The notes beneath the pieces were generated by a model. That model worked only from the letters and a program-made list of their open reading frames with translations. It had not been told where the DNA came from and ran no database searches. Below are positions 4-42,591 of a stretch of DNA of 64,000 bases, in pieces (positions within the stretch are counted from its first letter, which is position 1; each line of letters starts with the position of its first letter). Location of the stretch: the NCBI GenBank assembly GCA_036785375.1, contig JAWMAR010000070.1, forward strand, positions 7,192,001-7,256,000, in the 5' to 3' direction. The stretch comes from Leucoraja ocellata. Lineage: Eukaryota. A program made the position numbers and the translations under genes.

Positions 4-548
4 GTGAGTGATGGGGGTGGGATTGTCTCTGTTCACTGTTCCCCCAGTTCAGAAGCCTGATAGCAGAGGGGAAGAAGCTGTTCCTGAGTCTGGTGGTGCG
101 CGCTTTCAAGCTTCTGTACCTTCTGCTAGACAGGACCAGGGAGAAGGAGGAATGACCGGGGTGGGACAAGTGATGGAGTCATAGAGTCACAGCGAGACCT
201 TCGGCCCAACTTGCCCGCGCCCACCAATGTGTCCCCATCAATACTAGACCCACCTGCCTGCGTTTGGCCCTTACCCCTCTAATCCTGTCCTATCAATGTA
301 CCTGTCTAACTGTTTCTTAATCATTGTGATAGTACCTGCCCCAACTACCTCTTCCGGCAGCTCGTTCCAAACACCCTCCACCCTTTGTGTAAAAAAGTCA
401 CCCCTCAGTTTCCCATGAAATCTTTCCCCCCCCCTCGCCTTAAACCGATGTCCTCTGGTTCTCGATTCCCCAACTCTGGGCGGGTTCAGGGAATGTCATC
501 ATGAATCCTACTGAGTTGCAATAAGGTGACCCATTGTTTCACCCACAG
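4..548 (+). other. Predicted 5'UTR intron of A1 (paralogous introns: 6587-7133, 14556-15098, 41503-42047 on +; 38443-38988, 56608-57152 on -)
   Basis: GTGAGT donor at 4 and TTGTTTCACCCACAG acceptor ending at 548, 4 nt before the ATG; filled with decayed LINE fragments. Confidence 0.7.
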
Positions 549-552
549 GAAC

Positions 553-1092
553 ATGGGACTGCAGAGATGGATAGGATTCATGGTCCTTGTGGAGATGGTG
601 TGGCAAGTCTCCGCAACTGGAACAGGTCCGATCTCCAGAGAATGGGGAGAGGAAGCAAACTTGGCCGGGCGGAACACACGGGCGTATTTCAAAGTCACCA
701 ATGAACCGCTTCCAAGATGCACGAACGAGTCAGATTCTGATGCCATCAGTCATCACCCATCACCGATTAACAAGAAGGTGCTCGTTGCATCTCTGGGTGG
801 TTCTGTTACGTTGCCATGTAATATATCCATCCTTAAAAATCATTACAGGGTTGTTCAATGGAAAAAAGATGGTGTTCAAATTGCCAGTTTCCATGAGAGA
901 GCGTATGCGCGTTATACGGGGTCTGATGTTCACTGGAAGTTCGTTGATCACGACGTCTATATGGCTCAGGACGCCACGTTGCTCCTGACAGGTGTAAAAG
1001 AGGAAGATACAGGGACGTATTCCTGTGTTTGGTTCCATTATAGAGATAGACCGTTTTGTGAATTATTGATGCAGCTGATGATCTCTCACTGA
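553..1092 (+). CDS. Secreted single V-set Ig-domain protein, subfamily A copy 1 (A1), 179 aa
   Basis: ATG 553 in strong Kozak context (GGAACATGG) just after a splice acceptor (TTGTTTCACCCACAG, AG at 547-548); the ORF-track GTG start at 526 lies in the intron. Hydrophobic leader MGLQRWIGFMVLVEMVWQVSA. V-set hallmarks: GGSVTLPC, VQW, DATLLL, EDTGTYSC, about 68 aa between the canonical Cys. Stop right after the G strand, no TM segment. Confidence 0.88.
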   Translation: MGLQRWIGFMVLVEMVWQVSATGTGPISREWGEEANLAGRNTRAYFKVTNEPLPRCTNESDSDAISHHPSPINKKVLVASLGGSVTLPCNISILKNHYRVVQWKKDGVQIASFHERAYARYTGSDVHWKFVDHDVYMAQDATLLLTGVKEEDTGTYSCVWFHYRDRPFCELLMQLMISH

Positions 1093-1964
1093 TTCAGCAG
1101 GGCCAGTCCCAGGGTCAGTAACAAAGTCTAGTCTAGTTTAGTTTCGTTCAGAGGTACAACAGGGAAACAAGCCCTTCGGCCACAGAGTCAATGGGGACCA
1201 GTGATCACCCCATATACTAGTTCTATCCCACACACTAGATACAATTTACACTGACCAATTAACCTACAAACCTGCACGTCTCTGGGGTGTGGGACGAAAC
1301 CGGAGCTCCCGGATTCCAAAGAGGAAGGAAGATTCCAAGGGGAGTTAGGGGCGACCGTGGCTGACAAGGGAAGTCAGGGACACTATCACAAATGCATTTC
1401 GTTGTCTCTGTTCTGTACACTGACAATGACAATTAAATTGAATCTGAATCTGATAAAAGTGAACAGGTATAACGTTGCAAAGATGAGCGGAAAGCCAGGG
1501 GATTAGGTAACTCTTTTAAAGAGCAACAGAAGATAACTAAAAAAGCAATACGGGGAGAAAAGATGAGGTATGAAGGTAAGATAGCCAAGAATAGAAAGGA
1601 GGATCGTAAAAGCTTCTTTAGATATGTGAAAAAAATTAGTTCAGACTAAAATTGGTCCTTTATAGACTAAAAACTTTGGATCCGTCTTCACTAAGGAGAA
1701 CACAAACAATCTCCCTGATGTACTAGTGGCCAGAGGATCTGGGGACAACGGAGAGCCAGTGGATGTAGTGTACCTGGACTTGCAGGAAGTATTTGATAAG
1801 GTCCCACATAGGAGATTAGTGGGCAAAATTAGAGCACATGGTATTGGGGGAAGGGCCTGTTTCCATATTGTTTGACTCTGACACTAAGTAGGGAATAGTA
1901 AAGGTATAAAGATGAGCAGCGTGGAAGGTGTGAGCGTGGATCGCCTGCAGTGAGGAGAACTGAC

Positions 1965-2115
1965 CTTGCTTGCACCGGTAAATGTACGTTTAATTTAAAT
2001 AAACTTTCCTCTGCCTGCCCTGAAGACAGCCGGTGTGAGTGATTCTTTGTACGCCAGCATTGAGTTGGGTGTGAACTTTGTGCAACTTTTGCTCACTACG
2101 GGCAACATCGCCGGA
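1965..2115 (+). terminator. Conserved polyadenylation module of A1 (A2 AATAAA 8585-8590; A4 43436-43441)
   Basis: AATAAA 1998-2003 followed by GT-rich GTGTGAGTGATTCTTTGT; the same block lies downstream of every intact A and B gene in gene orientation. Confidence 0.6.
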
Positions 2116-2118
2116 TTA

Positions 2119-2280
2119 AAGGGCCTGTCCCACGAGCATGCGACTCCATGCGGCAAGCGCGACCTAACGTGGTCACTTGAGCCGTACGGCCTCGCGGGGC
2201 CGGTCCCACTTTGATCGCCGGAGCCGTATGGAGTTGTGTGGAGCTGGTCCCGACATCGCGCGGGGCTCTGAAAAACTGAA
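2119..2280 (+). mobile_element. Truncated MITE-like fragment, possibly PIF/Harbinger type (also about 8706, 43558; related end at about 39530, 53163, 57695)
   Basis: Begins TAA|AGGGCCTGTCCCAC exactly where similarity to the B-gene 3' module stops; no second terminus found. Confidence 0.4.
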
Positions 2281-2289
2281 TATGTTAGG

Positions 2290-2570
2290 ATATGGAAACA
2301 GGTTCTTCGGCCCACCGAGTCTAACCCAACCAGTGATCACCCCTACACTAGTTCTAACCTACACACTAGGGACAATTTACTGAAGCCAATTAACCATCAA
2401 ATCTACACGTCTTTGTAATCTGAAAGGGAACCAGAGCACCCGGAGGAAACCCACATGGTCCCAGGGACAATGTACATACACTGTACAGACAGTGCCCGTA
2501 GTTACCATCGAAGGCGGGTCTCTAGCGCTGTAAGGCAGCAACTCTACCGCTGCGCCACTGTACCGCCCCT
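2290..2570 (-). mobile_element. HE1-like tRNA-derived SINE (other copies about 1140-1315, 8880-9155, 15690-15900, 18078-18310 +, 34090-34325, 43735-44005, 48480-48715 +)
   Basis: Reverse complement starts GGGCGGTACAGTGGCGCAGCGGTAGAGTTGCTGCCTTACAGCGCTAGAGACCCG, a tRNA-like head with A/B boxes typical of elasmobranch SINEs. Confidence 0.75.
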
Positions 2571-3340
2571 GCATTGCCCTCGTGCATTGTTAGGGCTGCT
2601 GATTAGAGTCCAGTTTTGACCCTCGTTGGGTGTCAATTGTGGTTGTCAAGGAGCTTTCTTACCTCCGTATGGAGCCTGGTCTTCCAGTTATAGACCCACA
2701 CCACCCTGGCCACACTCTCTTATCACCACTACTGAGGGGAAGGTACAGGAGCCTGAGAACCGTGAGCTCCAGGTTCAAGAGCAGCTTCTTCCCAGCAAGC
2801 ACAAGGTTGTTGAACCAGCCTGCACAACCCCAACCACAACCCTACGCCACTCACCACAACCCTACACAACCCTGATGGACACTGCACCACTGGTGATGCC
2901 CCACGTACGTTGTCTTGTACTATCATGGTCTGGTTTACTTGGAATAACTGAGACCTTATTGTGTACTTATGGTGTAAGTATATAATCATGATAGGCCAGG
3001 GTAGACAGTGGAGGGCTGCCACTACAGAGCCGCCCATAGACCTGATAGAATTATATAAAGTTACTGTGCAGACCAAGTACAAACCCAACGCAATATTCCA
3101 CCACTCACCCATTCCCCAACGCTATATTTCACCACTCACTCATAGCCCCTAATTGTGCAGGAGCGGCTCATTTCTCCGTTTCCCCTCTTCCTCCTCTTCA
3201 CCCTCCCTCTTCAATACCTAGAGAGGGAGGAGGGGTAGAGGGAGGGGGTAGAGAGGGAGAGAGGCAGAGAGAAAGGGGGTAGAGAGAGAGTGGGAAGGGG
3301 TAGAGGGTGAGGGGGGGGGGGGGGTAGAGTGGGGTGGAGG

Positions 3341-4937: not shown

Positions 4938-6254
4938 GGGAGCCTCGATCGCCTCGATGCAGCAGTTTGATTTTAAGCCGCTCGGGCGCTGAAAGGCCCC
5001 GCGAACGGGACGATTCTGCCCATAGAAAGCGTCTGATAAAGTCCGGAACACAAAACATGGGCGGGGGGGGGAATCGTCCCCCACCTCCCAAAGCATAGGG
5101 AGACGTGCCCCCTGTTCCCCCCCCCCCCCAGGATTTCCGCCCATGGCGGTCACGATATCTCCTTCACCGCCGCAGTCTCGACGCCTCTTTGATGGCCGCG
5201 AAAAACCCCATGTGGGGCGTAGAAGGCCGGGTCGGATAAAGCGGAAAGTTAATTTCAATGAGGTCCTCCCCCTGACATCACTGGAAGCTGCTGGTCGACC
5301 ACTCCCCCTTTGTGACATCACTCGAAGCGGGGTGAAGGTTTGCCGTTTAATAAGTTGGTTTTCACTATTTTTAAAACGCTATAACTTGTGAACTACAGCA
5401 TGTAATGTGAAGTGGAGGAGTTTATTTTGTCAAAGGGGTTAATGTGATTAATAATGTGCGGAGGAGGGGAGGAGGAGAGGGGAGAGAAGGAGGAGGGTGT
5501 AGACGAGGGGGAGGGAGTGTAAGAGACTCGCCTGCGCAGTTGTGGGGTATGGGTGAGTGGTGGAATATTACGTTGGGGGGACGGGTACATCGCAAAGGAA
5601 TCTCATTTAGATTTCTTGGGAGGAGGCTTTTCATTGTGGGGGGTGGAATTGCTGAGAGGTTTCATTTACTCCTTATTTATAAAATAATTACGATTGTGGG
5701 GAGGGGTGGGTTGGGGGCGGGGGCTCCCCGTTTCATTGTGGGGGGGTGGAGTAAGAGAGAGGTTTCATTTCCAGAATTTTCCTTGCTAGGGGATGGGGTG
5801 AGTATTGTGGGGTATGGGTGAGTGGTGGAATATTACGTTGGGGGAACGGGACCCAACGGGTCCCACTTGGTCTAGTTATCATTATTTATTTAATGTTTCA
5901 CGTTTACACCAATCTCTCCACCACCACGAACAAGCAGCACAAGACGCAACAAGACAGACACCATTTTATGCAGATGCCGAGAAGTGTGATCAGCTCTGGC
6001 TGAACAACTAATCTTGTGTGTGGATTCGATAAGCAGAAGATTTAATGTCATAGTGTTATACAGTCATAGAGTGATACAGCATGGAAACAGGCCCTTTGGC
6101 CCAACTTGCCCACATTGGACAACATGTCCCAGCTACACTAGTCCCACCTGTCCACGTTTGGTCCATATCCCTCCAAATCTGACCTATCCCTGTTCCTGTC
6201 TAGCAGTTTCTTAAACGTCGGGATAGTTTCTGCCTCAACTGCGATGAGTTGACC

Positions 6255-6586
6255 AGAACGAGACGTGGTGGAGACACAAGCAGGATGTGTGGGGCGCCTG
6301 GTTGGCCGCTGGCAGCTGGGATGACGTTGTTCTTGTTAAACGTTAACGGCTGATGCAACGACACGTTTGGCAGAGGGTGGAGAGGTCGCGGCTGACTCCG
6401 GCCAATGCTCCGTGGGAGGCAGTGATTGGTTGAATGTACGTGAGGGCAGACAATGAGGGGCAGGAGAAGCCGGGAGTCGGTATAAAAGGAGCGAGCGATG
6501 GCAGGAGATGAGAACAAGACCGACCCCGTCACCCTGTGTGGAGACTCCGGAGCTGGTAACCAACCCTGTGGATCCTTCAAGTGTCT
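6255..6586 (+). promoter_or_regulatory. A2 promoter and non-coding exon 1
   Basis: TATAAAAG 6481-6488; CCAAT 6402-6406; reverse ERSE CGTGG-N9-ATTGG 6411-6429; TGATGCAAC 6351-6359; TGACGT 6322-6327; splice donor GTGAGT 6587-6592. Confidence 0.75.
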
Positions 6587-7137
6587 GTGAGTGATGGGGG
6601 TGGGATTGTCTCTGTTCGCTGTTCCCCCAGTTCAGAAGCCTGATAGCAGAGGGGAAGAAGCTGTTCCTGAGTCTGGTGGTGCGCGCTTTCAAGCTTCTGT
6701 ACCTTCTGCTAGAGAGGACCAGGGAGAAGGAGGAATGACCGTGGGTGGGACAAGTGATGGAGTCATAGAGTCACAGCGAGACCTTCGGCCCAACTTGCCC
6801 GCGCCCACCAACGTGTCCCCATCAATACTAGACCCACCTGCCTGCGTTTGGCCCTTACCCCTCTAATCCTGTCCTATCAATGTACCTGTCTAACTGTTTC
6901 TTAATCATTGTGATAGTACCTGCCTCAACTACCTCTTCCGGCAGCTCGTTCCAAACAACCTCCACCCTTTGTGTAAAAAAGTCACCCCTCAGTTTCCCAT
7001 GAAATCTTTCCCCCCCCCCTCGCCTTAAACCGATGTCCTCTGGTTCTCGATTCCCCAACTCTGGGCGGGTTCAGGGAATGTCATCATGAATCCTACTGAG
7101 TTGCAATAAGGTGACCCATTGTTTCACCCACAGGAAC

Positions 7138-7674
7138 ATGGGACTGCAGAGATGGATAGGATTCATGGTCCTTGTGGAGATGGTGTGGCAAGTCTCCGCA
7201 ACTGGAACAGGTCCGATCTCCAGAGAATGGGGAGAGGAAGCAAACTTGGCCGGGCGGAACGCACGGGCTCCTCGACAAGTCACCAATGAAACGCTTCCAA
7301 GATGCACGAACGAGTCAGATTCTGATGCCATCAGTCATCACCTATCAACGATTAACAAGAAGGTGCTCGTTGCATCTCTGGGTGGTTCTGTTACTTTGCC
7401 ATGTAATGTATCCAACGTTGACAATAGTCCCGAGGTTACATGGAATAAAGATGGTGTTGAAATTGCCTATTTCCATAGTAGAGTGCATGAGCGTTATACA
7501 GGATCTGATGTTCACTGGAAGTTCGTGCAACGAAACGTCCTTTGGGAACAGGACGCCACGTTGCTCCTGACAGGTGTAAAAGAGGAAGATAAAGGGACGT
7601 ATTCCTGTGTTTGGATCAAGTATCGTCAGAAACCGGTTTGTGAATTATTGATGCAGCTGATGATCTCTCACTGA
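7138..7674 (+). CDS. Secreted single V-set Ig-domain protein A2, 178 aa
   Basis: Same leader and acceptor as A1; GGSVTLPC...VTW...DATLLL...EDKGTYSC; intact ORF. Confidence 0.88.
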   Translation: MGLQRWIGFMVLVEMVWQVSATGTGPISREWGEEANLAGRNARAPRQVTNETLPRCTNESDSDAISHHLSTINKKVLVASLGGSVTLPCNVSNVDNSPEVTWNKDGVEIAYFHSRVHERYTGSDVHWKFVQRNVLWEQDATLLLTGVKEEDKGTYSCVWIKYRQKPVCELLMQLMISH

Positions 7675-9529
7675 TTCAGCAGGGCCAGTCCCAGGGTCAG
7701 TAACAAAGTCTAGTTTAGTTTAGTTTAGTTCCGTTCAGAGGTACAACAGGGAAACAAGCCCTTCGGCCACAGAGTCAATGGGGACCAGTGATCACCCCAT
7801 ATACTAGTTCTATCCCACACACTAGATACAATTTACACTGACCAATTAACCTACAAACCTGCACGTCTCTGGGGTGTGGGACGAAACCGGAGCTCCCGGA
7901 TTCCAAAGAGGAAGGAAGATTCCAAGGGGAGTTAGGGGCGACCGTGGCTGACAAGGGAAGTCAGGGACACTATCACAAATGCATTTCGTTGTCTCTGTTC
8001 TGTACACTGACAATGACAATTAAATTGAATCTGAATCTGATAAAAGTGAACAGGTATAACGTTGCAAAGATGAGCGGAAAGCCAGGGGATTAGGTAACTC
8101 TTTTAAAGAGCAACAGAAGATAACTAAAAAAGCAATACGGGGAGAAAAGATGAGGTATGAAGGTAAGATAGCCAAGAATAGAAAGGAGGATCGTAAAAGC
8201 TTCTTTAGATATGTGAAAAAAATTAGTTCAGACTAAAATTGGTCCTTTATAGACTAAAAACTTTGGATCCGTCTTCACTAAGGAGAACACAAACAATCTC
8301 CCTGATGTACTAGTGGCCAGGGGATCTGGGGACAATGGAGAGCCAGTGGATGTAGTGTACCTGGACTTGCAGGAAGTATTTGATAAGGTCCCACATAGGA
8401 GATTAGTGGGCAAAATGAGAGCACATGGTATTGGGGGAAGGGCCTGTTTCCATATTGTTTGACTCTGACACTAAGTAGGGAATAGTAAAGGTATAAAGAT
8501 GAGCAGCGTGGAAGGTGTGAGCGTGGATCACATGCAGTGAGGAGAACTGGCCTTGCTTGCACCGGTAAATGTACGTTTAATTTAAATAAACTTTCTTCTG
8601 CCTGCCCTGAAGACAGCCGGTGTGAGTGATTCTTTGTACGCCAGCATTGAGTTGGGTGTGAACTTTGTGCAACTTTTGCTCACTACGGGCAACATCGCCG
8701 GATTAAAGGGCCAGTCCCACGAGCATGCGACTCCATGCGGCAAGCGCGACCTAACGTGGTCACTTGAGCCGTACGGCCTCGCGGGACCGGTCCCACTTTG
8801 ATCGCCGGAGCCGTATGGAGTTGTGTGGAGCTGGTCCCGACATCGCGCGGGGCTCTGAAAAACTGAATATGTTAGGAAATGGAAACAGGTTCTTCGGCCC
8901 ACCGAGTCTAACCCAACCAGTGATCACCCCTACACTAGTTCTAACCTACACACTAGGGACAATTTACTGAAGCCAATTAACCTACAAATCTACACGTCTT
9001 TGTAATCTGAAAGGAAACCAGAGCACCCGGAGGAAACCCACATGGTCCCAGGGACAATGTACATACACTGTACAGACAGTGCCCGTAGTCACCATCGAAG
9101 GCGGGTCTCTAGCGCTGTAAGGCAGCAACTCTACCGCGGCGCCACTGTACCGCCCCTGCATTGCCCTCGTGCATTGTTAGGGCTGCTGATTAGAGTCCAG
9201 TTTTGACCCTCGTTGGGTGTCAATTGTGGTTGTCAAGGAGCTTTCTTACCTCCGTATGGAGCCTGGTCTTCCAGTTATAGGCCCACACCACCCTGGCCAC
9301 ACTCTCTTATCACCACTACTGAGGGGAAGGTACAGGAGCCTGAGAACCGTGAGCTCCAGGTTCAAGAGCAGCTTCTTCCCAGCAAGCACAAGGTTGTTGA
9401 ACCAGCCTGCACAACCCCAACCACAGCCCTACGCCACTCACCACAACCCTACACAACCCTGATGGACACTGCACCACTGGTGATATAAAGTTACTGAGCA
9501 GACCAAGTGCAGATCCATTGGGTCTGCTC

Positions 9530-15102: not shown

Positions 15103-15652
15103 ATGGGACTGCAGAGATGGATAGGATTCATGGTCCTTGTGGAGATGGTGTGGCAAGTCTCCGCAACTGGAACAGGTCCGATCTCCAGAGAATGGGGAGA
15201 GGAACCAAACTTGGCCGGGCGGAACGCACGGGCCCCTCAGCAAGTCAACAATGAACCGCTTCCAAGATGCACGAATGACTTAGATTCTGACAGTGATCAC
15301 GGTGCATCGAATAGCGATATTAGGCTCATTGCATCTCCGGGTGATTCTTTGACGCTGCCCTGTAAAATATCCAAAGATTACAAACAACTCTGGTTAGTTC
15401 AGTGGAGACAAAACGATGTTGAAATTAACAATTATAATGAGAAAACGTTTGATGAATATACGGGATCTGATGTCCGCTGGATATTTGTGGATCTAGAAGT
15501 CCTTTGGGACTGGGACGGCTCGTTGCTCCTGAGGCATAAAAGAGAAAGATGAAGGGATATATTCCTGTGTTTCGTTCATTGATACTCATGTGTTATGTGA
15601 AGAATTGGCCCAGCTGACAATCCTCCCAGTGATTCAGCAGTGCCCGACCTAG
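15103..15652 (+). pseudogene. Frameshifted A-type Ig V-domain gene (A3)
   Basis: Same leader; PGDSLTLPC...VQW...DGSLLL, then a 2-nt deletion after 15532 (CTG A-- GGC versus CTG ACA GGT in A1). The shifted frame continues GIKEKDEGIYSCVSFIDTHVLCEELAQLTI. An extra base near 15622 also moves the paralogous TGA (15630-15632) out of frame. Confidence 0.75.
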
Positions 15653-16759: not shown

Positions 16760-19700
16760 GGTAGTGAGTAGACTACACCTATTATGCGCGTTATATTATC
16801 AAGAGCTTGCCTCCGCTAGTTTGTACGAGTAGCTACTAGGAAATGTAATGTCCTGCAGATCTATGCTGTAAGTAGATTTAATAAACATGTGTTGTATCTT
16901 GATATGTGTCCGACTCAGCTCATTACATGATGTCCACTATGTCATGTTTTTTTTAATTAGTTTTTGTGTCTACTATATCCATCATGACACATTTTTGTCG
17001 CCTTCCTAGTCCTGTGATCTTTGACTCTGACATTGCTGAACTCGGGCGTCTTTTCGAGCATGACTACACTCATTATGCTGGCATTGTTCATCGCAACGAC
17101 CCCCCCAATGTGCGTGCTTTTGTGTTGCTCAACTTAGCGGGACCTGAAGCTATGAATCGCGCTGGCAATTTCACATTTGAGCCTGCTGTTCTGGATGCTA
17201 ATGGTCAGGTCCTGGCGCCTGCTGAGACGAATGACGACCCTGCTGTCTTTCTTGCAAAGTTCAGATGGTTGTGTGACCTGCACTCAAACTATATTATTGA
17301 ACGGAGGTACACAAAAATGCTGGAGAAACTCAGCGGGTGCAGCAGCATCTATGGAGCGAAGGAAATAGGCGACGTTGCCTATTTCTATAAGGGTTTCGGG
17401 ATGAAACGTTGCCTATTTCCTTCGCTCCATAGATGCTGCTGCACCCGCTGAGTTTCTCCAGCATTTTTGTCTACCTTTGTTCCATTTGATCTTCCGTTTG
17501 TGCACGTCGAGTTGATTGCATTAGTTGAAACAGGGCGGACCTCGTGAAATCTTCCACCCCTGACATATGACGAAGGAATGGATCGACTGTGCTTGTATTC
17601 ACTGGAATTTAGGATGAGACTGGAACTTATAAAAACATATAAAATTCTTAAGGGATCGGACAGACTAGATAGATGCAGGAAAAATATTGGGGGAGTCCAG
17701 AACCAGTGGTCACACAGTTTAAGAATAAGGTCTCGGCCATTTAGGACTGAGATGAAAAAAAACCTTTTCACCCAGAGAGTTGTGAATCTGTGGAATTCTC
17801 TGCCACAGAAGGCAGTGGAGGCCAATTCACTGGATGTTCTCAAGAGAGAGTTAGATTAAGCTCTTAGTGCTAACGTAATCAAGGGATATGGGGAGAAAGC
17901 AGGAACGGGGTAATGATTTAGGATGTTCAGCCATGATCATATTGAATGGCGGTGCTGGCTCGAGGGGCCGAATGGCCTCCTCCTGCACCAATTTTCTATG
18001 TTTCTGCACAATCCCAACAAGGGTCAAAACTGGACTCTAATCAGCTGCTGCAACTGTGCAAGAGGCCAATGTAAGGGAGGCTCAGTGATACAGCTGTAGA
18101 GTTGCTGCCGTACAGCGCTAGTGACCCGGGTTCAATGCTGACTGTAGGTACTGTCTGTACGGTGGTTGTACTTTTTCCCTATGACCGTGAGGGTTTCGCC
18201 CAGGTGCTACAGTTTCCTCACAGATGTCAAAGACGTGCAGGTTTGTAGGTTAATTGGCTTCAGTAAATTGTCCCTTGTGTGTAGGTTAGAACTAGTGTAC
18301 GGGCGATCACTCAAGTTCAAGTGTTTAAGAGAGATTATTGTCATGTGTCCCTGATAGGACAATGAAATTCTTGCTTTGCTTCAGCACAACAGAACATAGT
18401 AGGCATTTACTACAGAACAGATCAGAGTTTCTCCAGCATTTTTGTGTACCTTTGATCTTCCAGCATCTGCAGTTCCTTCTTGAGCATATTATTGAACGGA
18501 CCAAGTTTTATGCTCGTATGCAACAGGTTGGTGAACCAAAGGTTTTATCAGTGACTTAAAACAAATGGCTGCACGCTGCTGATTTCAAGATCTCTGCGAT
18601 GAACTCATCCATGACAAACTTGTCGGAGGAATGCTTGATAGCAAGTTACGGGGTGAACTTCTTTGTAATACTGACCTAACCCTTAATCAAGCAGAGCATG
18701 CCTGTTGGATGCTGAGATAACATCTTCCCACACTGAGTCTGTGTCCTCTGGTCACTGTTCGCAGCATAGTGTTAATCTTGCAGACTACTCCTCTTGTAAC
18801 ACCCACACAAGGTCTGTTCGATGTCAAAATTGCAACTATTTTCTTGCTAGGTGTCAGCAGTTCTGCGTTGCTTATGGTAAAGCCTGTAATTTCTGCAAGA
18901 AGTTAAACCACTTTTCTCGATGCTGCCGTTCCCGTGTGACTCAAGCAGCGTCAAGGATGAGCCTGCACCTGCTGCAACATGAGCTTGTTGATAATGACTT
19001 CCAAGAGCTTGATTTGCCATCCCCCGCTCCACTCTCAGAAAGTACAGATACCAGTTCTGCAACCCATTCTCCCCTCCCTTCGTCTAACAAGCAACTTGAC
19101 CCTGAGGTAACCATGTTTGTGATTAACAGGCCTTTAATCGCTAAGGTTGATACTGGCACAAAATGCAATGTCATCTCGTTAACAGAGTTTTAAAAATTCG
19201 TTATGCTGCATGTATTGAAAAGGCCTCGGCCACGCTTTGGACTTACGGGGGAGATGTTCTACACCCTCTTGGACAAGCTGATTTAAAGTGCACCATAGAC
19301 AAGCAGACTCATACTTTAAAGGTTTATATTGTTAAGGGGGATTCAGAGACTTTGCTCAGTATCAACGCAATCCACGATCTAGGCCTGGTATAGTTTGGCT
19401 ACGCCGTCCATCAAGACTTTCTCGCTGATGGACACACTCAACAGGTACTCTCTCAATACAAAGATCTGTTTAACGCCAAGCTTAGCAAATTGCCTATCAA
19501 ATACCACATTGTTGTCGATCCCAACATAACTCCTGTGGTCCGAGAACCGCATCATGCTCTGCACGCCATGCGTGGCAGAGTAAACAATGAACTCAAGCGG
19601 ATGGTCTCCATGGGTGTTATTGCCGAGGTTACAGACCCATCTGACTGGGTTTCCACAATGGTGGTCGCAACAAAGAAAAACAAAGAGGAGATCCATATCT

Positions 19701-20325
19701 GCATAAACCCCAGAGACCTTAACTGCCATCAAACGGCCACACTACCCAATGCGATTATTAGAGGAAGTTGCTGCTCAGGTAGGCAACACTTCAGTATTCT
19801 CCATTCTGGATGCCAAGAGCTCATTTTGGAAGATTCCACTGGACCCAGACACGTCAAATCTCATTTCATTCGGCACCCCCTTTGGCCGATACAAATTTCT
19901 GAGAATGCCCTTTGGCATCAACTCTGCCAGCGACGTTTTCCAGCGCACGATGGAACAATTGTTTGTTGAGTACCCATGTGCCATCATTGTTGATGACATT
20001 CTCGTCTACAGACGTGATTGGACTGAACATGACGCCAATCTGAAGAAAGAACTATACAATGCCAAAGACATTCAGCTCAAACTCAATCCCTTGAAGGGCA
20101 AGTTTCGAGTTCCAGAAGATACTGACGTTGGACATGTCTTCACAAGTGATGGTCTCAGACCAGACCCATCAAAAACTGCACCTATCAACAAAATGCCGGT
20201 TCCTTGGAATGGTCAACTACCAGGGGAAATTTATTCCCAACCTCAGCGACATATCTGCCCCCTGTGGGAACTGACACACAAGGACGCTGCATGGTCATGG
20301 TATCCGCAGCACCAAAGAGTTTTCC
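16760..20325 (+). mobile_element. Decayed Ty3/Gypsy LTR retrotransposon (Mag-like), 3'-truncated
   Basis: Short 5' LTR about 16760-16927 ending CTCATTACA; gag with Zn knuckle CNFCKKLNHFSRCC; protease KVDTGTKCNVIS; RT FSILDAKSSFW, RMPFGI, IIVDDILVY; multiple stops and frameshifts. Confidence 0.88.
17306..18485. mobile_element. Composite insertion with palindromic Penelope-like ends and 15-bp TSD (duplicate 47119-48889)
   Basis: ATATTATTGAACGGA at 17291-17305 and 18486-18500 flanks the insert, which interrupts the Gypsy gag. Confidence 0.65.
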
Positions 20326-20572
20326 ATCAACCGTTCCTCAGCCCACCTGGCCATTATTTCAGGATGCTGCTGCAATTTATCACAACCATCTCCACTATCT
20401 GCAAAACCGCCTACTTTTGTGTCATCTCCCTTTACTTCTGTCCCTGTTTTGTTCCTGACAACATTCCCTTTTACTTTTGTTCCTGTTCTCAACACCTGCG
20501 GACTCCATGATTTTCCACATGTTGTTCCGGCCCCGTGTGGTCATGGACAATGTTGGACACAGCTCATAGAAG

Positions 20573-21112: not shown

Positions 21113-21628
21113 TCACTTCACTGTCAGCTTGATATTTAGTCTACATTCCTTTTGGCCAGTGAACCAAGAGCAGGAATATATCCCAATATCAGTCTTGAGT
21201 AAACCTATGATGACCAACGAGGCATCCCGTGTCCCATCCACGTTTGTATTCATGAACCTCCAGCGGCCGACCCCCCCTGGATAAGTCGCTCCTTTCCCTT
21301 TAGTAAACACGCCCAGTATCCCGCTCCCTTTACTCCAGGTGATCATAAAATCCGCGGGTCCAGTCTTCCCTGTGGGTACTTTACAGGGCAGCGTAGCAGA
21401 ACCACCCTTGCGTGCCGTCACATCCGTGAATTTCATCTTGGTCGCAGCTGGCTTAGCACCGCATTCTGGAGAACTTTGTTTTTTGACTTGTCGAGGCTCC
21501 CGTGCGTTCCACCCGGGCAAGTTTGCTTCCTCTCCCCATTCTCTGGAGATCGGACCTGTTCCAGTTGCGGAGACTTGCCACACCATCTCCACAAGGACCA
21601 TGAATCCTATCCATCTCTGCAGTCCCAT
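21113..21628 (-). CDS. Secreted single V-set Ig-domain protein, subfamily B copy 1 (B1), 171 aa
   Basis: Same leader as the A genes; GGSATLPC, ITW, GRWRF, RDASLVI, DIGIYSC, ends KLTVK-stop; no TM segment. Confidence 0.88.
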   Translation of the reverse strand: MGLQRWIGFMVLVEMVWQVSATGTGPISREWGEEANLPGWNAREPRQVKKQSSPECGAKPAATKMKFTDVTARKGGSATLPCKVPTGKTGPADFMITWSKGSGILGVFTKGKGATYPGGVGRWRFMNTNVDGTRDASLVIIGLLKTDIGIYSCSWFTGQKECRLNIKLTVK

Positions 21629-29070: not shown

Positions 29071-31597
29071 GGACCACAATATGGTCGAATTCCATATTCA
29101 AATAGAAGGGGAGCAGGTTGAAACTCAGGCTAGGGTGCTTAGTCTAAATAAGGGGGATTATGAAGGTATGAGGACTTAGCTGATCAAAGTTGACTGGGAT
29201 AGCAGACTCAAGAATAAGACGGTACATGAGCAGTGGTGTACGTTTAAGGGTATACTGTATAATCTTCAAGAAAAATTTATTCCTATGAAGAAAAAAAGGG
29301 GTAAGGGTAAGAACAGTCAGCCATGGCTCAGTAAAACTATAAAGGATAGTATTCGGCTGAAAGCAAGGGCATATAAGGTAGCCAGAGATAGTGGGAGGGT
29401 AGAGGATTGGGAAGCATTTAAAGGTCAGCAAAAAATAACTAAGAGATTAATTAAGACGGGGAAAATAGATTATGAAAGGAATTTAGCGAACAACATAAAA
29501 ACTAATAGTAAGAGTTTTTATAGCTATATAAAAAGAAAAAGGGTGGCTAAGGTGAACGTTGGTCCATTGGAGGGTGAGACTGGAGAGTTGTTGGTGGGGA
29601 ACATGGAAATGGCAAAGGCATTAAACGAGTATTTTGTATCAGTCTTCACCATAGAAGACACAAAAAATATTCCAACGCTGGATAAACAGGGGGCGGTAGG
29701 AATGGAGGAGCTAAATACTATTAAGATCACCAAGGAGGTGGTATTAGGGAAATTAATGAGACTGAAGGAGGATAAATCCCCTGGGCCTGATGGATTACAT
29801 CCAAGGGTCTTGAGGGAGATAGCGGTGGGGATTGTGGATGCATTGGTGATAATTTTCCAAAACTCCCTGGAGGCAGGAACGGTCCCAGTGGATTGGAAAA
29901 TGGCCAATGTAACACCTATATTTAAAAAAGGAAGTAAACAGAAGGCGGGTAACTATAGACCGGTTAGTCTAACATCGGTGGTGGGTAAAATGTTAGAGAC
30001 AATTATTAAAGAAACACTAACGGGGCACTTGGATAAACATGACTTCATCGGACAGAACCAGCATGGTTTTGTGAAGGGGAAGTCCTGTTTAACGAATCTG
30101 CTCGAATTCTTTGAGGAAGTAACAACCCGGGTGGATAAAGGGGAACCGGTGGATGTGGTATACTTGGACTTCCAAAAGGCTTTTGACAAGGTGCCACATA
30201 AGAGACTATTGCTAAAAATAAAAAATTATGGGATTGGGGGTAATATATTAGCATGGGTAGAGGATTGGCTAACAAATAGGAAGCAGAGAGTGGGGATAAA
30301 TGGTTCATACTCGGGATGGCAACCGGTAACTAGCGGGGTTCCGCAGGGGTCGGTGCTGGGACCCCAGTTGTTCACAATTTATATAAATGATTTGGAGGAG
30401 GGAACCAAGTGTAATATATCAAAATTTGCGGACGATACAAAAATGGGAGGAAAAGTAGGGGATGAGGAGGATAGGAAGAGTCTGCAAAAGGATATAGATA
30501 AGCTAGGTGAGTGGGCAACAACTTGGCAGATGAAATTTAATACTAATAAATGTGAAGTCATTCACTTTGGGAAAAAAAATGATAGGGCAAGTTATTTTCT
30601 AAATGAGGAGGAGCTGCGTTGTAATGCAACGCAAAGGGATCTAGGGGTATTAGTACATGAATCACTGAAAGTTAGTATGCAGGTGCAGCAAGCAATCAGG
30701 AAGGCCAATGGAGTTTTGGCCTTTATTGCTAGGGGGATTGAGTATAAAAACACGGAGGTCTTGCTGCAGCTGTACACAGTATTAGTGAGACCACATTTGG
30801 AATACTGTGTACAGTTCTGGGGTCCATACTTAAGAAAGGATGTACTAGCCCTGGAGGCAGTGCAGCGAAGGTTTACAAGATTAATTCCTGCAATGAGGGG
30901 ATTGACATATGAGGAAAGGTTAAGTAGGCTGGAACTCTACTCTTTGGAGTTTAGAAGAATGAGAGGCGATCTCATTGAAACATATAAGATCGTGAGGGGC
31001 CTTGATCGGGTGGATGCACCGAGGATGTTCCCAATGATCGGGGAAACTAGAACTAGGGGACATAGTTGCAGAATAAGAGGGGGCTCTTTTAAAACTGAGA
31101 TGAGGAAGAACTTCTTCACCCAGAGGGTGGTTAATTTATGGAATTCACTGCCCCAGGGAGCAGTGGAAGCAGAAACTTTAAATATATTTAAGACAAAAAT
31201 AGATGTTTTTTTAGCTGCCAAGGGGATAAGGGGCTACGGGGAGAGGGCAGGGATATGGACCTAGGTATGGTTAGTATAGTAAGACCTGAGTGATCTCCTG
31301 GACAAGTGTCGATCGCCTGGATTGGGGTCAGAGAGGAATTTCCCGGATTTTTTTCCCGAATTGGACCTGGGTTTTTATCCGTTTTTTTGCCTCCCCCAGG
31401 AGATCACGAGGTTCTTGGGGTGGAGAGGGGTGATAGCGGTATAAGGGGGAGGGTAGTGTCTTGTGTTCTGTGTCTTGTGTCTACTGTTTGTGGGTAAGTG
31501 TGTCTGTTTAGTGTTCAGCCATGAGCGAATGGCGGTGCGGGCTCGACGGACCTGGTGGTCTACTCTCGCACCTACTTTCTATGTTTCTATGTTTCTA
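29071..31597 (+). mobile_element. Young 5'-truncated CR1 LINE nested in the ERV
   Basis: ORF2 homology begins at DHNMVEFHI; ends in (TTTCTATG)n. Confidence 0.92.
29285..31264 (+). CDS. CR1 ORF2 remnant, reverse transcriptase domain, 659 aa open frame, endonuclease missing
   Basis: [43 protein letters not shown]; in-frame stop upstream at 29177-29179. Confidence 0.8.
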   Translation: MKKKRGKGKNSQPWLSKTIKDSIRLKARAYKVARDSGRVEDWEAFKGQQKITKRLIKTGKIDYERNLANNIKTNSKSFYSYIKRKRVAKVNVGPLEGETGELLVGNMEMAKALNEYFVSVFTIEDTKNIPTLDKQGAVGMEELNTIKITKEVVLGKLMRLKEDKSPGPDGLHPRVLREIAVGIVDALVIIFQNSLEAGTVPVDWKMANVTPIFKKGSKQKAGNYRPVSLTSVVGKMLETIIKETLTGHLDKHDFIGQNQHGFVKGKSCLTNLLEFFEEVTTRVDKGEPVDVVYLDFQKAFDKVPHKRLLLKIKNYGIGGNILAWVEDWLTNRKQRVGINGSYSGWQPVTSGVPQGSVLGPQLFTIYINDLEEGTKCNISKFADDTKMGGKVGDEEDRKSLQKDIDKLGEWATTWQMKFNTNKCEVIHFGKKNDRASYFLNEEELRCNATQRDLGVLVHESLKVSMQVQQAIRKANGVLAFIARGIEYKNTEVLLQLYTVLVRPHLEYCVQFWGPYLRKDVLALEAVQRRFTRLIPAMRGLTYEERLSRLELYSLEFRRMRGDLIETYKIVRGLDRVDAPRMFPMIGETRTRGHSCRIRGGSFKTEMRKNFFTQRVVNLWNSLPQGAVEAETLNIFKTKIDVFLAAKGIRGYGERAGIWT

Positions 31598-37925: not shown

Positions 37926-38438
37926 TCACATCACTGTCAGCTTGGTATTTAGTCTACATTCCTCTTTGCCAGTGAACCAAGCGCAGGAATACATCCCAAC
38001 ATCACTCTTCTGTAAACCCGTGATGACCAACGAGGCATCCCGTGTCCCATCCACGTTTGTTTCCTTGAACGACCAGCGGCCGGCCCCCCCTGGATAGGTC
38101 GCACCTTTCCCTTTAGTAAACACGGCCAATGTCCCCTTCCCTTTACTCCAGGTGACAGCAAAGTTGCTGGGTCCATCCTTCCCTGTGGGTACTATACAGG
38201 GTAGCGTAGCAGAACCACCCTTTGCCGTCACATCCGTGAATTTCATCTTGTTCGCAGCTGGCCTAGCACCGCATTCTGGAGTATCTTGTTTGTTGACTTG
38301 TCGAGGCTCCCGTGCGTTCCACCCGGGCAAGTTTGCTTCCTCTCCCCATTCTCTGGAGATCGGATCTGTTCCAGTTGCGGAGACTTGCCACACCATCTCC
38401 ACAAGGACCATGAATCCTATCCATCTCTGCAGTCCCAT
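37926..38438 (-). CDS. Secreted single V-set Ig-domain protein B2, 170 aa
   Basis: Intact paralog of B1 (GGSATLPC...VTW...DASLVI...DVGMYSC...KLTVM). Confidence 0.88.
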   Translation of the reverse strand: MGLQRWIGFMVLVEMVWQVSATGTDPISREWGEEANLPGWNAREPRQVNKQDTPECGARPAANKMKFTDVTAKGGSATLPCIVPTGKDGPSNFAVTWSKGKGTLAVFTKGKGATYPGGAGRWSFKETNVDGTRDASLVITGLQKSDVGMYSCAWFTGKEECRLNTKLTVM

Positions 38439-38988
38439 GTTCCTGTGGGTGAAACAATGGGTCACCTTATTGCAACTCAGTAGGATTCATGATGACATTC
38501 CCTGAACCCGCCCAGAGTTGGGGAATCGAGAACCAGAGGACATCGGTTTAAGGCGAGGGGGGGGGGGAAAGATTTAATGGGAAACTGAGGGGTGACTTTT
38601 TTACACAAAGGGTGGAGGGTGTTTGGAACGAGCTGCCGGAAGAGGTAGTTGGGGCAGGTACTATCACAATGATTAAGAAACAGTTAGACAGGTACATTGA
38701 TAGGACAGGATTAGAGGGGTAAGGGCCAAACGCAGGCAGGTGGGTCTAGTATTGATGGGACACGTTGGTGGGCGTGGGCAAGTTGGGCCGAAGGTCTCGC
38801 TGTGACTCTATGACTCCATCACTTGTCCCACCCCGGTCATTCCTCCTTCTCCCTGGTCCTGTCTAGCAGAAGGTACAGAAGCTTGAAAGCGCGCACCACC
38901 AGACTCAGGAACAGCTTCTTCCCCTCTGCTATCAGGCTTCTGAACTGGGGGAACAGTGAACAGAGACAATCCCACCCCCATCACTCAC

Positions 38989-39365
38989 AGACACTTGAAG
39001 GATCCACAGGGTTGGTTACCAGCTCCGGAGTCTCCACACAGGGTGACGGGGTCGGTCTTGTTCTCATCTCCTGCCATCGCTCGCTCCTTTTATACCGACT
39101 CCCGGCTTCTCCTGCCCCTCATTGTCTGCCCTCATGTACATTCAACCAATCACTGCCTCCCACGGAGCATTGGCCGGAGTCAGCCGCGACCTCTCCACCC
39201 ACTGCCAAACGTGTCGTTGCATCAGCCGTTAACGTTTAACAAGAACAACGTCATCCCAGCTGCCAGCGGCCAACCAGGCGCCCCACACATCCTGCTTGTG
39301 TCTCCACCACGTCTCGCTTTGGCCACCCATCGGACCAGATGTCCCAGCCACGCCACGTCACCACC
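38989..39365 (-). promoter_or_regulatory. B2 promoter and non-coding exon 1
   Basis: TATA 39087-39094, ERSE 39146-39164, TGACGTGG 39353-39360. Confidence 0.75.
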
Positions 39366-41170
39366 ACAGCCCTTGGCACCTGCGCTGGTTCCACAGTTTA
39401 TACTCAATCTGAGCCGGCAGCTGGGATGGCGTTGGATCAATTCTTCCTTCCCAACAACCATCAGGCTGTTGAACACGACACGACACTGAGGTCAACGATG
39501 AACGTCTATGGAATGTCCAAGGTTGCACTAATGCCCCTGTCCCACTTAGGAAACCTGAACGGAAACCTCTGGAGACTTAGCGCCCCACCCAAGGTTTCCG
39601 TGCGGTTCACGGAGGTTTTTGTCTGTCTCCCTACCTGCTTCCACTACCTGCAACCTCCGGCAACCACCTGCAACCTCCGGCAACCACCTGCAACCTCCGG
39701 GAACCTTCGGGACGAAACGTTGCCTATTTCCTTCACTCCATAGATGCTGCTGCACCCGCTGAGTTTCTCCAGCATTTTTGTGTACCTTCGATTTTCCAGT
39801 ATCTGCAGTTTCTTCTTCAACATCAAATAGAACAAGTTGTCCTACAACTTTAGGCTGTGCACGCCACACGAAAGAAGAAGTTGACATGTCTGTCCCGCCA
39901 TCCCGGGTATTAACCTGGTGAACCTACGTTGCACTCCCTCAATAGCAAGAATGCCCTTCCTCAAAATGACAGTGAAGTGCTGCCTCTACAGAGACACCCA
40001 ATAGACCTGATAGAATGGTATAAAATGATGAGAGGCGTAGATAGCTGAGATAACCTGAAGCAATTTCCCGAAGGCTTTGGAGACGGTGCAGAAGCAGTTC
40101 CCCAGAATGATGTCGGGATCGGAGGTTGTTAGTTATATGGACAGGTTGGATAATCTTGGATTAGTTTCTCTAGAACTTCAGATGTTGAGCGGAGACCTGA
40201 CAGAAGGTAATAAAATTCTTAAGGGGTTGGACAGGCTAGATGCAGGAACGTTGTTCCCGATGTTGGGGAAGTCCAGAACTAGGGGTCACAGTTTAAGGAT
40301 AAGGGGGAAATCTTTTAGGACCGAGATGAGAAAAACATTTTTCACACAGAGAGTGGTGAATGTGGAATTCTCTGCCACAGAAGGTATTTGAGGCCAGTTC
40401 ATTGGCTATATTTAAGAGGGAGTTAGATGTGGCCCTTGTGGCTAAAGGGATCAGGGGGTATGGAGAGAAGGCAGGTACTGGATACTGAGTTTGATGATCA
40501 GCCATGATCATATTGAATGGCGGTGCAGGCTCGAAGGGCCGAATGGCCTACTCCTGCACCTATTGTCTATTGTCTACTGTCTATTGTCTATTGAGATAGG
40601 AAACATTTAAAGATACAAGTGGAGGTAGTTACAATAGTTCAGAGACTTTATCTAAAAAATCTCATGGACATGCAGGGAATTGAGATTATGGATCAGGTGC
40701 AGGCAGAGGAGATTAGCTGAACTTGGCATCATGTTCAGCACGGACCTTGTGGGCCGAAGGGCCTGTTCCTGTGCTGTTCCATGTTCTATGTTACATCATC
40801 TTCTCAATCACATCTTGAGAAGAACATTTTCCAGAGGTGCCCAGGTACCACCAGTGTGACATTCATTGTATCTGCTGCAGTCAATGAGTGTGTTGTGTAG
40901 ACAGCCAGAGGAGAAGATGGGATTTATGTGGAGTTTCATTTTGTAATCATTATTTATTTAATATCATAGTGTAATAGAGTCATAGAGTGATACAGCGTGG
41001 AAACAGGCCCTTCGGCCCAACTTGCCCACACTGGCCAACATGTCCCAGCTACACTAGTCCCACCTATCCACGTTTGGTCCATATCCTTCTAAATCTGACC
41101 TATACCTGTTCCTGTTTAACTGTTTCTTAAACGTCGGGATAGTTTCTGCCTCAACTGCGATGAGTTGACC

Positions 41171-41502
41171 AGAACGAGACGTGGTGGAGACACAAGCAGG
41201 ATGTGTGGGGCGCCTGGTTGGCCGCTGGCAGCTGGGATGACGTTGTTCTTGTTAAACGTTAACGGCTGATGCAACGACACGTTTGGCAGAGGGTGGAGAG
41301 GTCGCGGCTGACTCCGGCCAATGCTCCGTGGGAGGCAGTGATTGGTTGAATGTACGTGAGGGCAGACAATGAGGGGCAGGAGAAGCCGGGAGTCGGTATA
41401 AAAGGAGCGAGCGATGGCAGGAGATGAGAACAAGACCGACCCCGTCACCCTGTGTGGAGACTCCGGAGCTGGTAACCAACCCTGTGGATCCTTCAAGTGT
41501 CT
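41171..41502 (+). promoter_or_regulatory. A4 promoter and non-coding exon 1
   Basis: TATA 41397-41404, ERSE 41327-41345, donor at 41503; divergent from the B2 promoter. Confidence 0.75.
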
Positions 41503-42051
41503 GTGAGTGATGGGGGTGGGATTGTCTCTGTTCACTGTTCCCCCAGTTCAGAAGCCTGATAGCAGAGGGGAAGAAGCTGTTCCTGAGTCTGGTGGTGCGC
41601 GCTTTCAAGCTTCTGTACCTTCTGCTAGACAGGACCAGGGAGAAGGAGGAATGACCGGGGTGGGACAAGTGATGGAGTCATAGAGTCACAGCGAGACCTT
41701 CGGCCCAACTTGCCCGCGCCCACCAATGTGTCCCCATCAATACTAGACCCACCTGCCTGCGTTTGGCCCTTACCCCTCTAATCCTGTCCTATCAATGTAC
41801 CTGTCTAACTGTTTCTTAATCATTGTGATAGTACCTGCCCCAACTACCTCTTCCGGCAGCTCGTTCCAAACACCCTCCACCCTTTGTGTAAAAAAGTCAC
41901 CCCTCAGTTTCCCATGAAATCTTTCCCCCCCCCTCGCCTTAAACCGATGTCCTCTGGTTCTCGATTCCCCAACTCTGGGCGGGTTCAGGGAATGTCATCA
42001 TGAATCCTACTGAGTTGCAATAAGGTGACCCATTGTTTCACCCACAGGAAC

Positions 42052-42591
42052 ATGGGACTGCAGAGATGGATAGGATTCATGGTCCTTGTGGAGATGGTGT
42101 GGCAAGTCTCCGCAACTGGAACAGGTCCGATCTCCAGAGAATGGGGAGAGGAAGCAAACTTGGCCGGGCGGAACACACGGGCGTATTTCAAAGTCACCAA
42201 TGAACCGCTTCCAAGATGCACGAACGAGTCAGATTCTGATGCCATCAGTCATCACCCATCACCGATTAACAAGAAGGTGCTCGTTGCATCTCTGGGTGGT
42301 TCTGTTACGTTGCCATGTAATATATCCATCCTTAAAAATCATTACAGGGTTGTTCAATGGAAAAAAGATGGTGTTCAAATTGCCAGTTTCCATGAGAGAG
42401 CGTATGCGCGTTATACGGGGTCTGATGTTCACTGGAAGTTCGTTGATCACGACGTCTATATGGCTCAGGACGCCACGTTGCTCCTGACAGGTGTAAAAGA
42501 GGAAGATACAGGGACGTATTCCTGTGTTTGGTCCGTGTATAGAGATAGACCGTTTTGTGAATTATTGATGCAGCTGGTGATCTCTCACTGA
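42052..42591 (+). CDS. Secreted single V-set Ig-domain protein A4, 179 aa
   Basis: Near-identical to A1; differs at FH>SV in the FG region and M>V near the C-terminus. Confidence 0.88.
   Translation: MGLQRWIGFMVLVEMVWQVSATGTGPISREWGEEANLAGRNTRAYFKVTNEPLPRCTNESDSDAISHHPSPINKKVLVASLGGSVTLPCNISILKNHYRVVQWKKDGVQIASFHERAYARYTGSDVHWKFVDHDVYMAQDATLLLTGVKEEDTGTYSCVWSVYRDRPFCELLMQLVISH

Follow-up and report, generated by a model that had tools for sequence, protein, structure and literature searches.

A tandem family of predicted secreted nectin/PVR-type V domains in a skate, with a homogenised 5' cassette and a diversifying binding face

In the skate Leucoraja ocellata, an array of genes predicted to encode secreted single-V-domain proteins combines a 5' cassette that is nearly identical from copy to copy with a mature domain under diversifying positive selection, and by analogy with known families this combination of a conserved cassette and a diversifying binding face suggests a soluble recognition or decoy repertoire. 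The window is a stretch of 64,000 nucleotides (positions 7,192,001 to 7,256,000 of contig JAWMAR010000070.1, assembly GCA_036785375.1); the skate contig that carries it is called C70, and C16 is another contig of the same genome. The gene family appears to be undescribed, since no paper on it was found in the main texts of the open-access literature.

Results

Eight copies of the gene lie in the window (Table 1), namely A1, A2, A4, the frameshifted copy at 15103 and four minus-strand B-type genes. Of 85 candidates from a search of the skate's own genome, 61 were matches. In the fetched regions that define the census (C70 6.98-7.55 Mb and C16 1.77-1.80 Mb) 59 copies have a leader, 57 of them on C70 and the other 2 on C16, and 52 of the 59 are intact (51 of 57 on C70 alone). 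The intact copies comprise 41 different coding sequences for 37 different proteins and form eight subfamilies (A with 24 members, B with 16, D with 3, C, E, F and G with 2 each, and a C16 type with 1), whose V domains share 31-55% of their residues (69% for B versus G) and whose predicted charge ranges from acidic (pI ~5) to basic (pI ~10). A DIRLIASPG-type subfamily is represented here by broken copies only (window 15103-15640; C70:7119380, 7165062, 7446113 and 7491516).

Table 1. Features of the gene family within the window; selected sites are residue numbers
Feature	Position	Strand	Remarks
Intron 1 of A1	4-548	+	GT...AG; exon 1 ends at base 3
A1 copy, coding region	553-1092	+	179 aa; predicted signal peptide, pro-piece, Cys56 stalk, probable nectin/PVR-type V domain, stop directly after strand G
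Variable block, pro-piece junction	676-691	+	fifth block, 8 differences; absent from the earlier note
Variable block, BC loop and strand C	823-864	+	14 differences; selected sites 98, 100, 102, 104
Variable block, C'/C'' strands and loop, nectin 'lock' segment	877-921	+	11 differences; selected sites 109, 112, 115, 118, 120, 122
Variable block, DE loop/helix	945-966	+	12 differences; selected sites 132, 133, 136, 137, 138
Variable block, end of F, FG turn, start of G, nectin 'key' position	1033-1054	+	9 differences; selected sites 161, 162, 164, 165, 168
A1 3' flank	1093-2897	+	99% identical to that of A2, mostly repeat DNA; homogenised or recent duplicate
A2 homogenised 5' cassette	6248-7284	+	promoter, exon 1 (to 6586), intron (6587-7133), signal, pro-piece
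A2 copy	7138-7674	+	178 aa
Broken copy, further subfamily	15103-15640	+	end approximate; frameshift 3' of strand E
B-type copy	21113-21628	-	basic V domain, ~30-36% identity to A
B-type copy	37926-38438	-	head to head with A4
A4 copy	42052-42591	+	A1-like; F/FG tip differs (SVY vs FHY)
B-type copy	51516-52031	-	
B-type copy	56088-56603	-	4 residues off the L. erinacea LOC129708941 protein

The array consists of two tandem blocks, at C70 ~6.99-7.316 Mb (32 copies) and 7.316-7.566 Mb (25 copies), whose interiors are 99.4% identical and whose outer ends are ~97% identical. The two blocks are either a genuine duplication or two haplotypes, and the comparison of A1 with A2 is unaffected either way. 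Orphan copies of the promoter and exon 1 were seen at C70:7260970 and 7512387, where the intron is broken by other DNA and no exon 2 is adjacent. In the head-to-head B/A pair at window 38438-42052 the 1-kb cassettes form 98-99% inverted repeats, and this layout, which is open to inversion or conversion, occurs six times in the array. The window also holds long frames at 29180-31264, 58469-62644 and 18687-20510, which we take to be a LINE reverse transcriptase, a tyrosine-recombinase (DIRS-like) element and a decayed LTR element, respectively.

Full-length relatives were found only in L. erinacea (LOC129708937-46), in Rhinoraja longicauda and, as one protein, in the electric ray Narcine bancroftii, and carry the database label 'uncharacterized' or, for N. 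bancroftii, 'nectin-1-like'. Wider homologue searches, two of which depend on shared words and for which annotation may be missing, added only the Narcine protein, the presence of which indicates that the gene dates back to the split between skates and electric rays or earlier. In the tree each L. erinacea protein groups with its own subfamily, the E-type V domain showing 0 differences from its L. erinacea counterpart; because the Rhinoraja protein nests within one subfamily group, the F/C16 branch (support 96/95), the subfamilies predate the split between Leucoraja and Rhinoraja.

Exon 1 of A1 matches C70:7191915-7192004, and in A2 an intron of 547 bases is followed by a single exon for everything from the signal peptide through the V domain. 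The A2 promoter contains what we take to be CCAAT boxes and a TATA box (6481-6488). In the shared promoter (window 6320-6490) a palindromic GTTAAACGTTAAC, presumably similar to an HNF1 site, accompanies the putative CCAAT boxes, spaced ~32 bases apart, and is also kept in the C16 copies.

The signal peptide has a hydrophobic stretch peaking at 2.2, and the acidic pro-piece ends in RxPR-QV in 42 of the 52 intact copies and in a RAY(F/W) junction in 10. The PR-Q junction is conserved as far as Narcine, and cleavage after PR would, we assume, occur at a site resembling minimal convertase or thrombin-type sites. Exactly four cysteines are found past residue 40 in 51 of the 52 intact copies, and since the two non-canonical ones, in the stalk and in strand G, are also present in the Narcine homologue, it is reasonable to suppose that they form a second disulfide. 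A stop codon follows strand G in all 52 intact copies and likewise in the RefSeq models, the encoded proteins contain no transmembrane segment, and no C2-set match was detected on C70 or C16 among the 150 of 438 candidates that were scored. The family members are thereby predicted, from their encoded architecture, to be secreted single-V-domain proteins without a membrane anchor.

The Logan protein P0159 comes from a contig of 900 bases in which exon 1 is joined to exon 2, and since the intron would require more than 1,150 bases the contig is too short to hold it, which indicates that some relative is transcribed and spliced. The same join occurs in the L. erinacea models; the sequencing-run search listed no RNA dataset containing the gene. 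We doubt the 31-residue N-terminal extension given in RefSeq, as its ATG lies 17 bases past the TATA box and exon 1 does not keep the frame in either C16 copy or in one C70 copy whose exon 2 is intact; P0159 includes the extension, which counts against this doubt.

By sequence and by modelled fold the V domain is closest to domain 1 of nectin/PVR proteins, and is probably of that type. All four proteins scanned exceed the Pfam V-set cut-off, the hallmarks C, W, D, Y and C are invariant, and the model has V-type strands including C' and C''. PVR was the best of 22 PDB sequence matches (E 2.6e-6). An AlphaFold model from a 37-row alignment (pLDDT 78; only 33 for a single-sequence model) had PVR D1 and nectins 1-3 as its best Foldseek matches, with small margins over PD-L1 and JAML, and the top ESM Atlas matches of the Narcine homologue were of nectin/PVR type; the tree does not separate a nectin from a CD200-like ancestry. 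CEACAMs were absent from the 22 PDB sequence matches and the fold matches listed, as were CD300/pIgR proteins from the listed sequence, ESM Atlas and fold matches. The array copies do not encode a V-C2-C2 ectodomain with transmembrane segment and tail. Nothing pointed to a viral origin, the viral fold search returning only generic Ig-domain matches at 10-25% identity.

Genuine nectin V exons were located elsewhere in the genome, one nectin-1-like (L086:3676-4017, on C34) and one nectin-2/PVR-like (L085:3001-3345, on C1288). A further V exon on C70 at 4.71 Mb (L087:3568-3864) resembles those of CD300/pIgR-type receptors. A scan of the array flanks for a syntenic parent gene, covering the 150 longest of 201 single-copy frames, yielded just a GH18 chitinase-family gene (L098:6272-6568 to L099:9081; C70 7.592-7.605 Mb), which starts ~75 kb past the last copy.

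The GFCC'C'' face is the one by which PVR-family proteins pair, with AX6G as lock and T(Y/F)P as key (PMC10486284). The Narcine protein (P0064) and both skate nectin exons have lock and key alike; among the 52 intact array copies the lock is kept in 14 and the T(F/Y)P key in none. Because both are kept in Narcine and largely lost in the array, selection is likely to act on the old nectin interface.

An earlier note on this DNA had named four pairs of loop peptides that differ between A1 and A2, and all eight were recovered at their places (A1 823, 877, 946 and 1033; A2 7408, 7459, 7528 and 7615). When the A1 unit (1-2897) was aligned globally with the A2 unit (6584-9484), 48 of 306 bases of the V domain (781-1089) differed, in addition to one codon indel, as against 23 of 2,354 flank bases, which confirms the claim that the domain is far more divergent than its surroundings. 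The intron differs at 5 of 549 bases and the 3' flank at 18 of 1,805, and codons 1-40 show no difference. Within 820-1075 lie 47 of the 48 domain differences, forming four blocks plus a single change at 1010, and at the fifth block the APRQ of A2 (RNARAPRQV) is replaced by AYFK in A1 (RNTRAYFKV). For this pair alone dN is 0.20 and dS 0.11, and 17 of the 40 differing codons carry 2-3 base changes.

Diversifying positive selection on the V domain is real, and it is robust to recombination and to multi-base changes. Codon site models, in our own implementation with five beta classes and naive empirical Bayes posteriors, were applied to 17 distinct A-type domains (of 19 distinct A coding sequences; 103 codons) and gave an M0 omega of 2.8 and an M2a omega of 11.2 at 29% of sites. 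The strong positive selection proposed earlier held under these models, with 2dL of 71.7 for M1a/M2a, 71.7 for M7/M8 and 71.4 for M8a/M8; it was 51.7 when each of four segments had its own tree and 50.4 with double- and triple-hit rates, and neutral mosaics simulated on those four trees but fitted to a single one gave 2dL of at most 8.7 in 22 of 22 cases. The B+G group (12 sequences) independently gave 2dL of 25.0, or 19.3 with multi-hit rates, and an omega of ~3.5. A conservative tree-free count that favours synonymous paths gave non-significant dN/dS values of 1.56 over the whole A domain (78 vs 15 changes, p=0.067) and 1.34 over the whole B domain (p=0.16). Thirteen recent duplicate pairs had 8 nonsynonymous and 6 synonymous changed codons among 1,338, and since there is no nonsynonymous excess, selection is episodic rather than constant. 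It is strong at a subset of sites.

Twenty-two sites passed the cut-off for selected sites (posterior >0.95). With strand limits taken from DSSP on the model and faces assigned from DSSP and alternation rather than from coordinates, these comprise 12 of 40 front-strand positions (C, C', C'', F, G), 10 of 43 loop positions and 0 of 19 back-strand positions (front versus back, p=0.006). Five of the loop sites are in DE and one each in BC, C'C'', C''D, EF and FG, and in strand C the selected sites alternate (100, 102, 104) about the core Trp103. Variability had been said to be confined to the CDR-equivalent loops, a view at odds with these results, as only 3 of the 22 sites are in the BC, C'C'' and FG loops and 12 are on front-sheet strands; besides loops, the variable blocks themselves cover strands C, C', C'', F and G. 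The pattern is one of receptor-face diversification rather than antibody-like CDR variation. Differences from the L. erinacea proteins also touch the back sheet (13 of 117), and the B-family selected sites are less confined than the A-family ones.

Strand G is encoded in the same exon as the V domain, with no J motif (FGxG/WGxG), and the window contains no recombination signal sequence (RSS) with a 12- or 23-spacer at up to 3 mismatches from the consensus. A rearranging Ig/TCR V gene was rejected on these grounds, that is, zero RSS and no separate J.

Silent sites are also raised in the domain: 4 of 36 four-fold sites differ between A1 and A2, as against the 23 of 2,354 flank bases (p=4e-4), so that silent domain sites are about tenfold more divergent than the flanks. 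The inference that coding sequence outpaces adjacent neutral DNA therefore survives in its selection part and loses its argument from the flanks, because these are homogenised and hence provide no neutral clock.

Homogenisation extends over the whole array. In a stretch of 340 promoter bases all 57 C70 copies are within 5 mismatches of A2, the two C16 copies having 27 and 31, and the 1-kb promoter-to-leader cassette is ~99% identical across subfamilies, although part of the intron has been replaced in some. Among the C70 subfamilies four-fold divergence in the domain is 0.08-0.44, compared with 2-10 mismatches over ~500 bases of promoter, exon 1 and intron; between subfamilies domain dS is mostly 0.35-0.9 and leader pS 0-0.016. 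A D-type gene whose domain is 35% identical to A has A-type DNA on both sides, with 0-4 differences per 100 bases in that DNA and 31-52 per 100 in the domain. Because domains group by subfamily across species, the domains are old and the cassette young. A dispersed repeat was rejected as the nature of the promoter, the 40 of 65 candidates scored being all on C70.

Conversion of the loop blocks from divergent donors, which the earlier note had offered as an alternative to selection, found no support among the non-A intact copies, the best donor match in that set (broken copies excluded) having at least 6 mismatches in 24 bases. A PHI-like test for recombination within the domain was non-significant (p=0.10 and 0.27), and a runs test marked 2 of 15 mixed A genes as mosaic (p=0.001 and 0.004, uncorrected). 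Block shuffling among A genes adds some variety, and no outside donor among the intact copies explains the loop blocks. In recent duplicates silent change is ~0.6% in the domain and 0.34% in the cassette, with no strong excess. The simplest account of these data is that the cassette undergoes conversion and that selection prevents this in the mature domain. A comparable 'peak of divergence' is described for the red/green opsins in PMC3924837.

Discussion

In the explanation that we favour, frequent gene conversion and unequal crossing-over would erase differences in promoter, intron and leader, as well as in the 3' flank of neighbouring copies, and selection would remove those conversions that overwrite the binding face and fix new amino acids there, the outcome being a divergence peak over the domain, silent sites included. 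We regard this evolutionary part as very probable. The copies would be co-expressed from one shared promoter, secreted and trimmed after the conserved PR, exposing Gln, and the mature domain would be braced by the extra disulfide from the stalk Cys to the strand-G Cys. The products may then act as soluble binders of fast-changing foreign ligands, the likeliest of which would be microbial or viral adhesins that use nectin-family receptors, with the copies serving as decoys. To the whole, evolution and panel of soluble binders or decoys for foreign ligands together, we assign a probability of about 0.55.

Because nectins and PVR are used as viral receptors (for poliovirus and herpesvirus glycoprotein D, by PDB titles), a decoy or defence role is our leading guess by analogy, at roughly even odds and ahead of a reproductive or signalling role. 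It is possible, though we hold it only tentatively, that the skate germline carries an antibody-independent 'nectin-body' repertoire, in which one continually homogenised cassette would drive V domains that can stand in for one another and come from eight or more old subfamilies. Cleavage at PR-QV (at another junction in the A1 and C types) would activate the proteins, and the former lock-and-key face would be a hypervariable viral or microbial trap.

The same evolution could also have served a reproductive or social role, in testis, clasper, alkaline/shell gland, egg jelly or skin, through gamete recognition, sperm competition or chemical signalling. Secretion, tandem copies and a common promoter, together with positive selection and turnover of copies, suit reproductive proteins just as well. 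Moreover, CEACAM32, which offers the closest conversion pattern, is testis-specific (PMC7042247), and PSGs are reproductive-tract proteins (PMC5594555). However, eight coexisting subfamilies with near-identical counterparts in L. erinacea fit a standing repertoire better than species-specific gamete matching, and we consider this role a serious but clearly less probable competitor.

We think it improbable that the proteins are soluble modulators of the skate's own nectin/TIGIT/CD96/CD226-type receptors, with one subfamily per paralogous receptor. The fold and the variable face are indeed those of nectin-family pairing, and genuine nectin-1-like and nectin-2/PVR-like V exons are present elsewhere in the genome, but none of the 52 intact copies retains the T(F/Y)P key and 38 of them have lost the AX6G lock, and an omega near 10 is hard to reconcile with conserved self ligands.

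A peak produced by local hypermutation, or by templated conversion from divergent donors, instead of by selection against homogenisation would account for the many A1/A2 codons with 2-3 base changes (17 of 40), for the elevated silent sites and the two mosaic A genes, and for the improvement of the neutral model by a double-hit rate. Yet selection remains significant with multi-hit rates (2dL=50.4), which then shrink; the recent duplicates have 6 silent changes in 1,338 domain codons, without a strong excess over the cassette; no non-A intact copy is closer than 6 of 24 mismatches to an A loop block; and the window has zero RSS, all of which leaves this origin quite unlikely. An assembly artefact, with A1 and A2 as alleles or the array falsely duplicated, is very unlikely: in this assembly haplotype duplicates seem to remain on contigs of their own (paired matches), the array is itself a two-block duplication of 97-99.4% identity and L. 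erinacea RefSeq has only ~10 loci, but A1-type and A2-type genes alternate many times inside one block, the main subfamilies all have separately annotated L. erinacea counterparts, three public runs contain 56-68% of sampled words from window 400-1300, and the worst case would still leave 25-32 copies per block.

The reading as a conserved cassette with a diversifying, predicted secreted binder can be set against known systems. With nectin/PVR (CD155), TIGIT, CD96, CD226 and PVRIG the family shares a V domain alike in sequence and predicted fold, and Narcine retains AX6G and TYP. Unlike nectin/PVR, the skate proteins have a single V domain, are predicted to be secreted and lack C2 domains, anchor and tail; they add a pro-piece and a Cys pair, and they exist in tens of copies under diversifying selection, with the key lost in all 52 intact ones. 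Precursors of conotoxins, amphibian skin peptides and MgCRP-I proteins combine a conserved signal and pro region with a hypervariable mature part and fixed cysteines. The skate mature part differs from these in being an Ig domain of 123-144 residues rather than a short peptide; skates are not, to our knowledge, venomous.

Bat PSG-like secreted CEACAMs, as described in PMC5594555, have a dN/dS of 1.66 and selected sites on the CFG face, and a decoy role has been proposed for them; in bats and horses alike an adhesion-receptor IgV domain has been recast as a large secreted family of one- or two-domain proteins. The skate family similarly consists of predicted secreted IgV proteins, a repertoire whose CFG face is under positive selection, and the bat family therein appears to be its closest working analogue. 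The differences, within what that account covers, are that the mammalian proteins are CEACAM-derived and placental, that leader and domain are on separate exons and that no pro-piece is described. In bovine CEACAM32 (PMC7042247) and the red/green opsins (PMC3924837) conversion is likewise limited to leader and intron and the ligand-binding exon escapes it. Those cases are single paralogue pairs, whereas in the skate a single cassette is common to 57 copies, which lie in either orientation, and identity gives way to divergence inside a single exon, at the pro-piece junction.

Among the diversified IgSF families in the germline of fishes are skate MDIR and teleost SITR, NITR and NILT, of which SITR is soluble (PMC3031540). 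The same source presents these families as CD300/TREM/pIgR- or KIR-like and the MDIRs as activating or inhibitory receptors, whereas the present family matches nectins; it is set apart from MDIR by the matches listed and by the missing anchor.

If this explanation is true, the family would be an independent, nectin-derived parallel in cartilaginous fish to the CEACAMs of bats and horses, the parallel consisting in an adhesion receptor's ligand-binding domain that has been freed as a large secreted, positively selected family. It would also offer a sharp and testable case of gene conversion halting partway through an exon, where the mature protein meets the pro-piece, for which the 22 surface positions and the L. 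erinacea loci LOC129708937-46 are named here for work in a model species.
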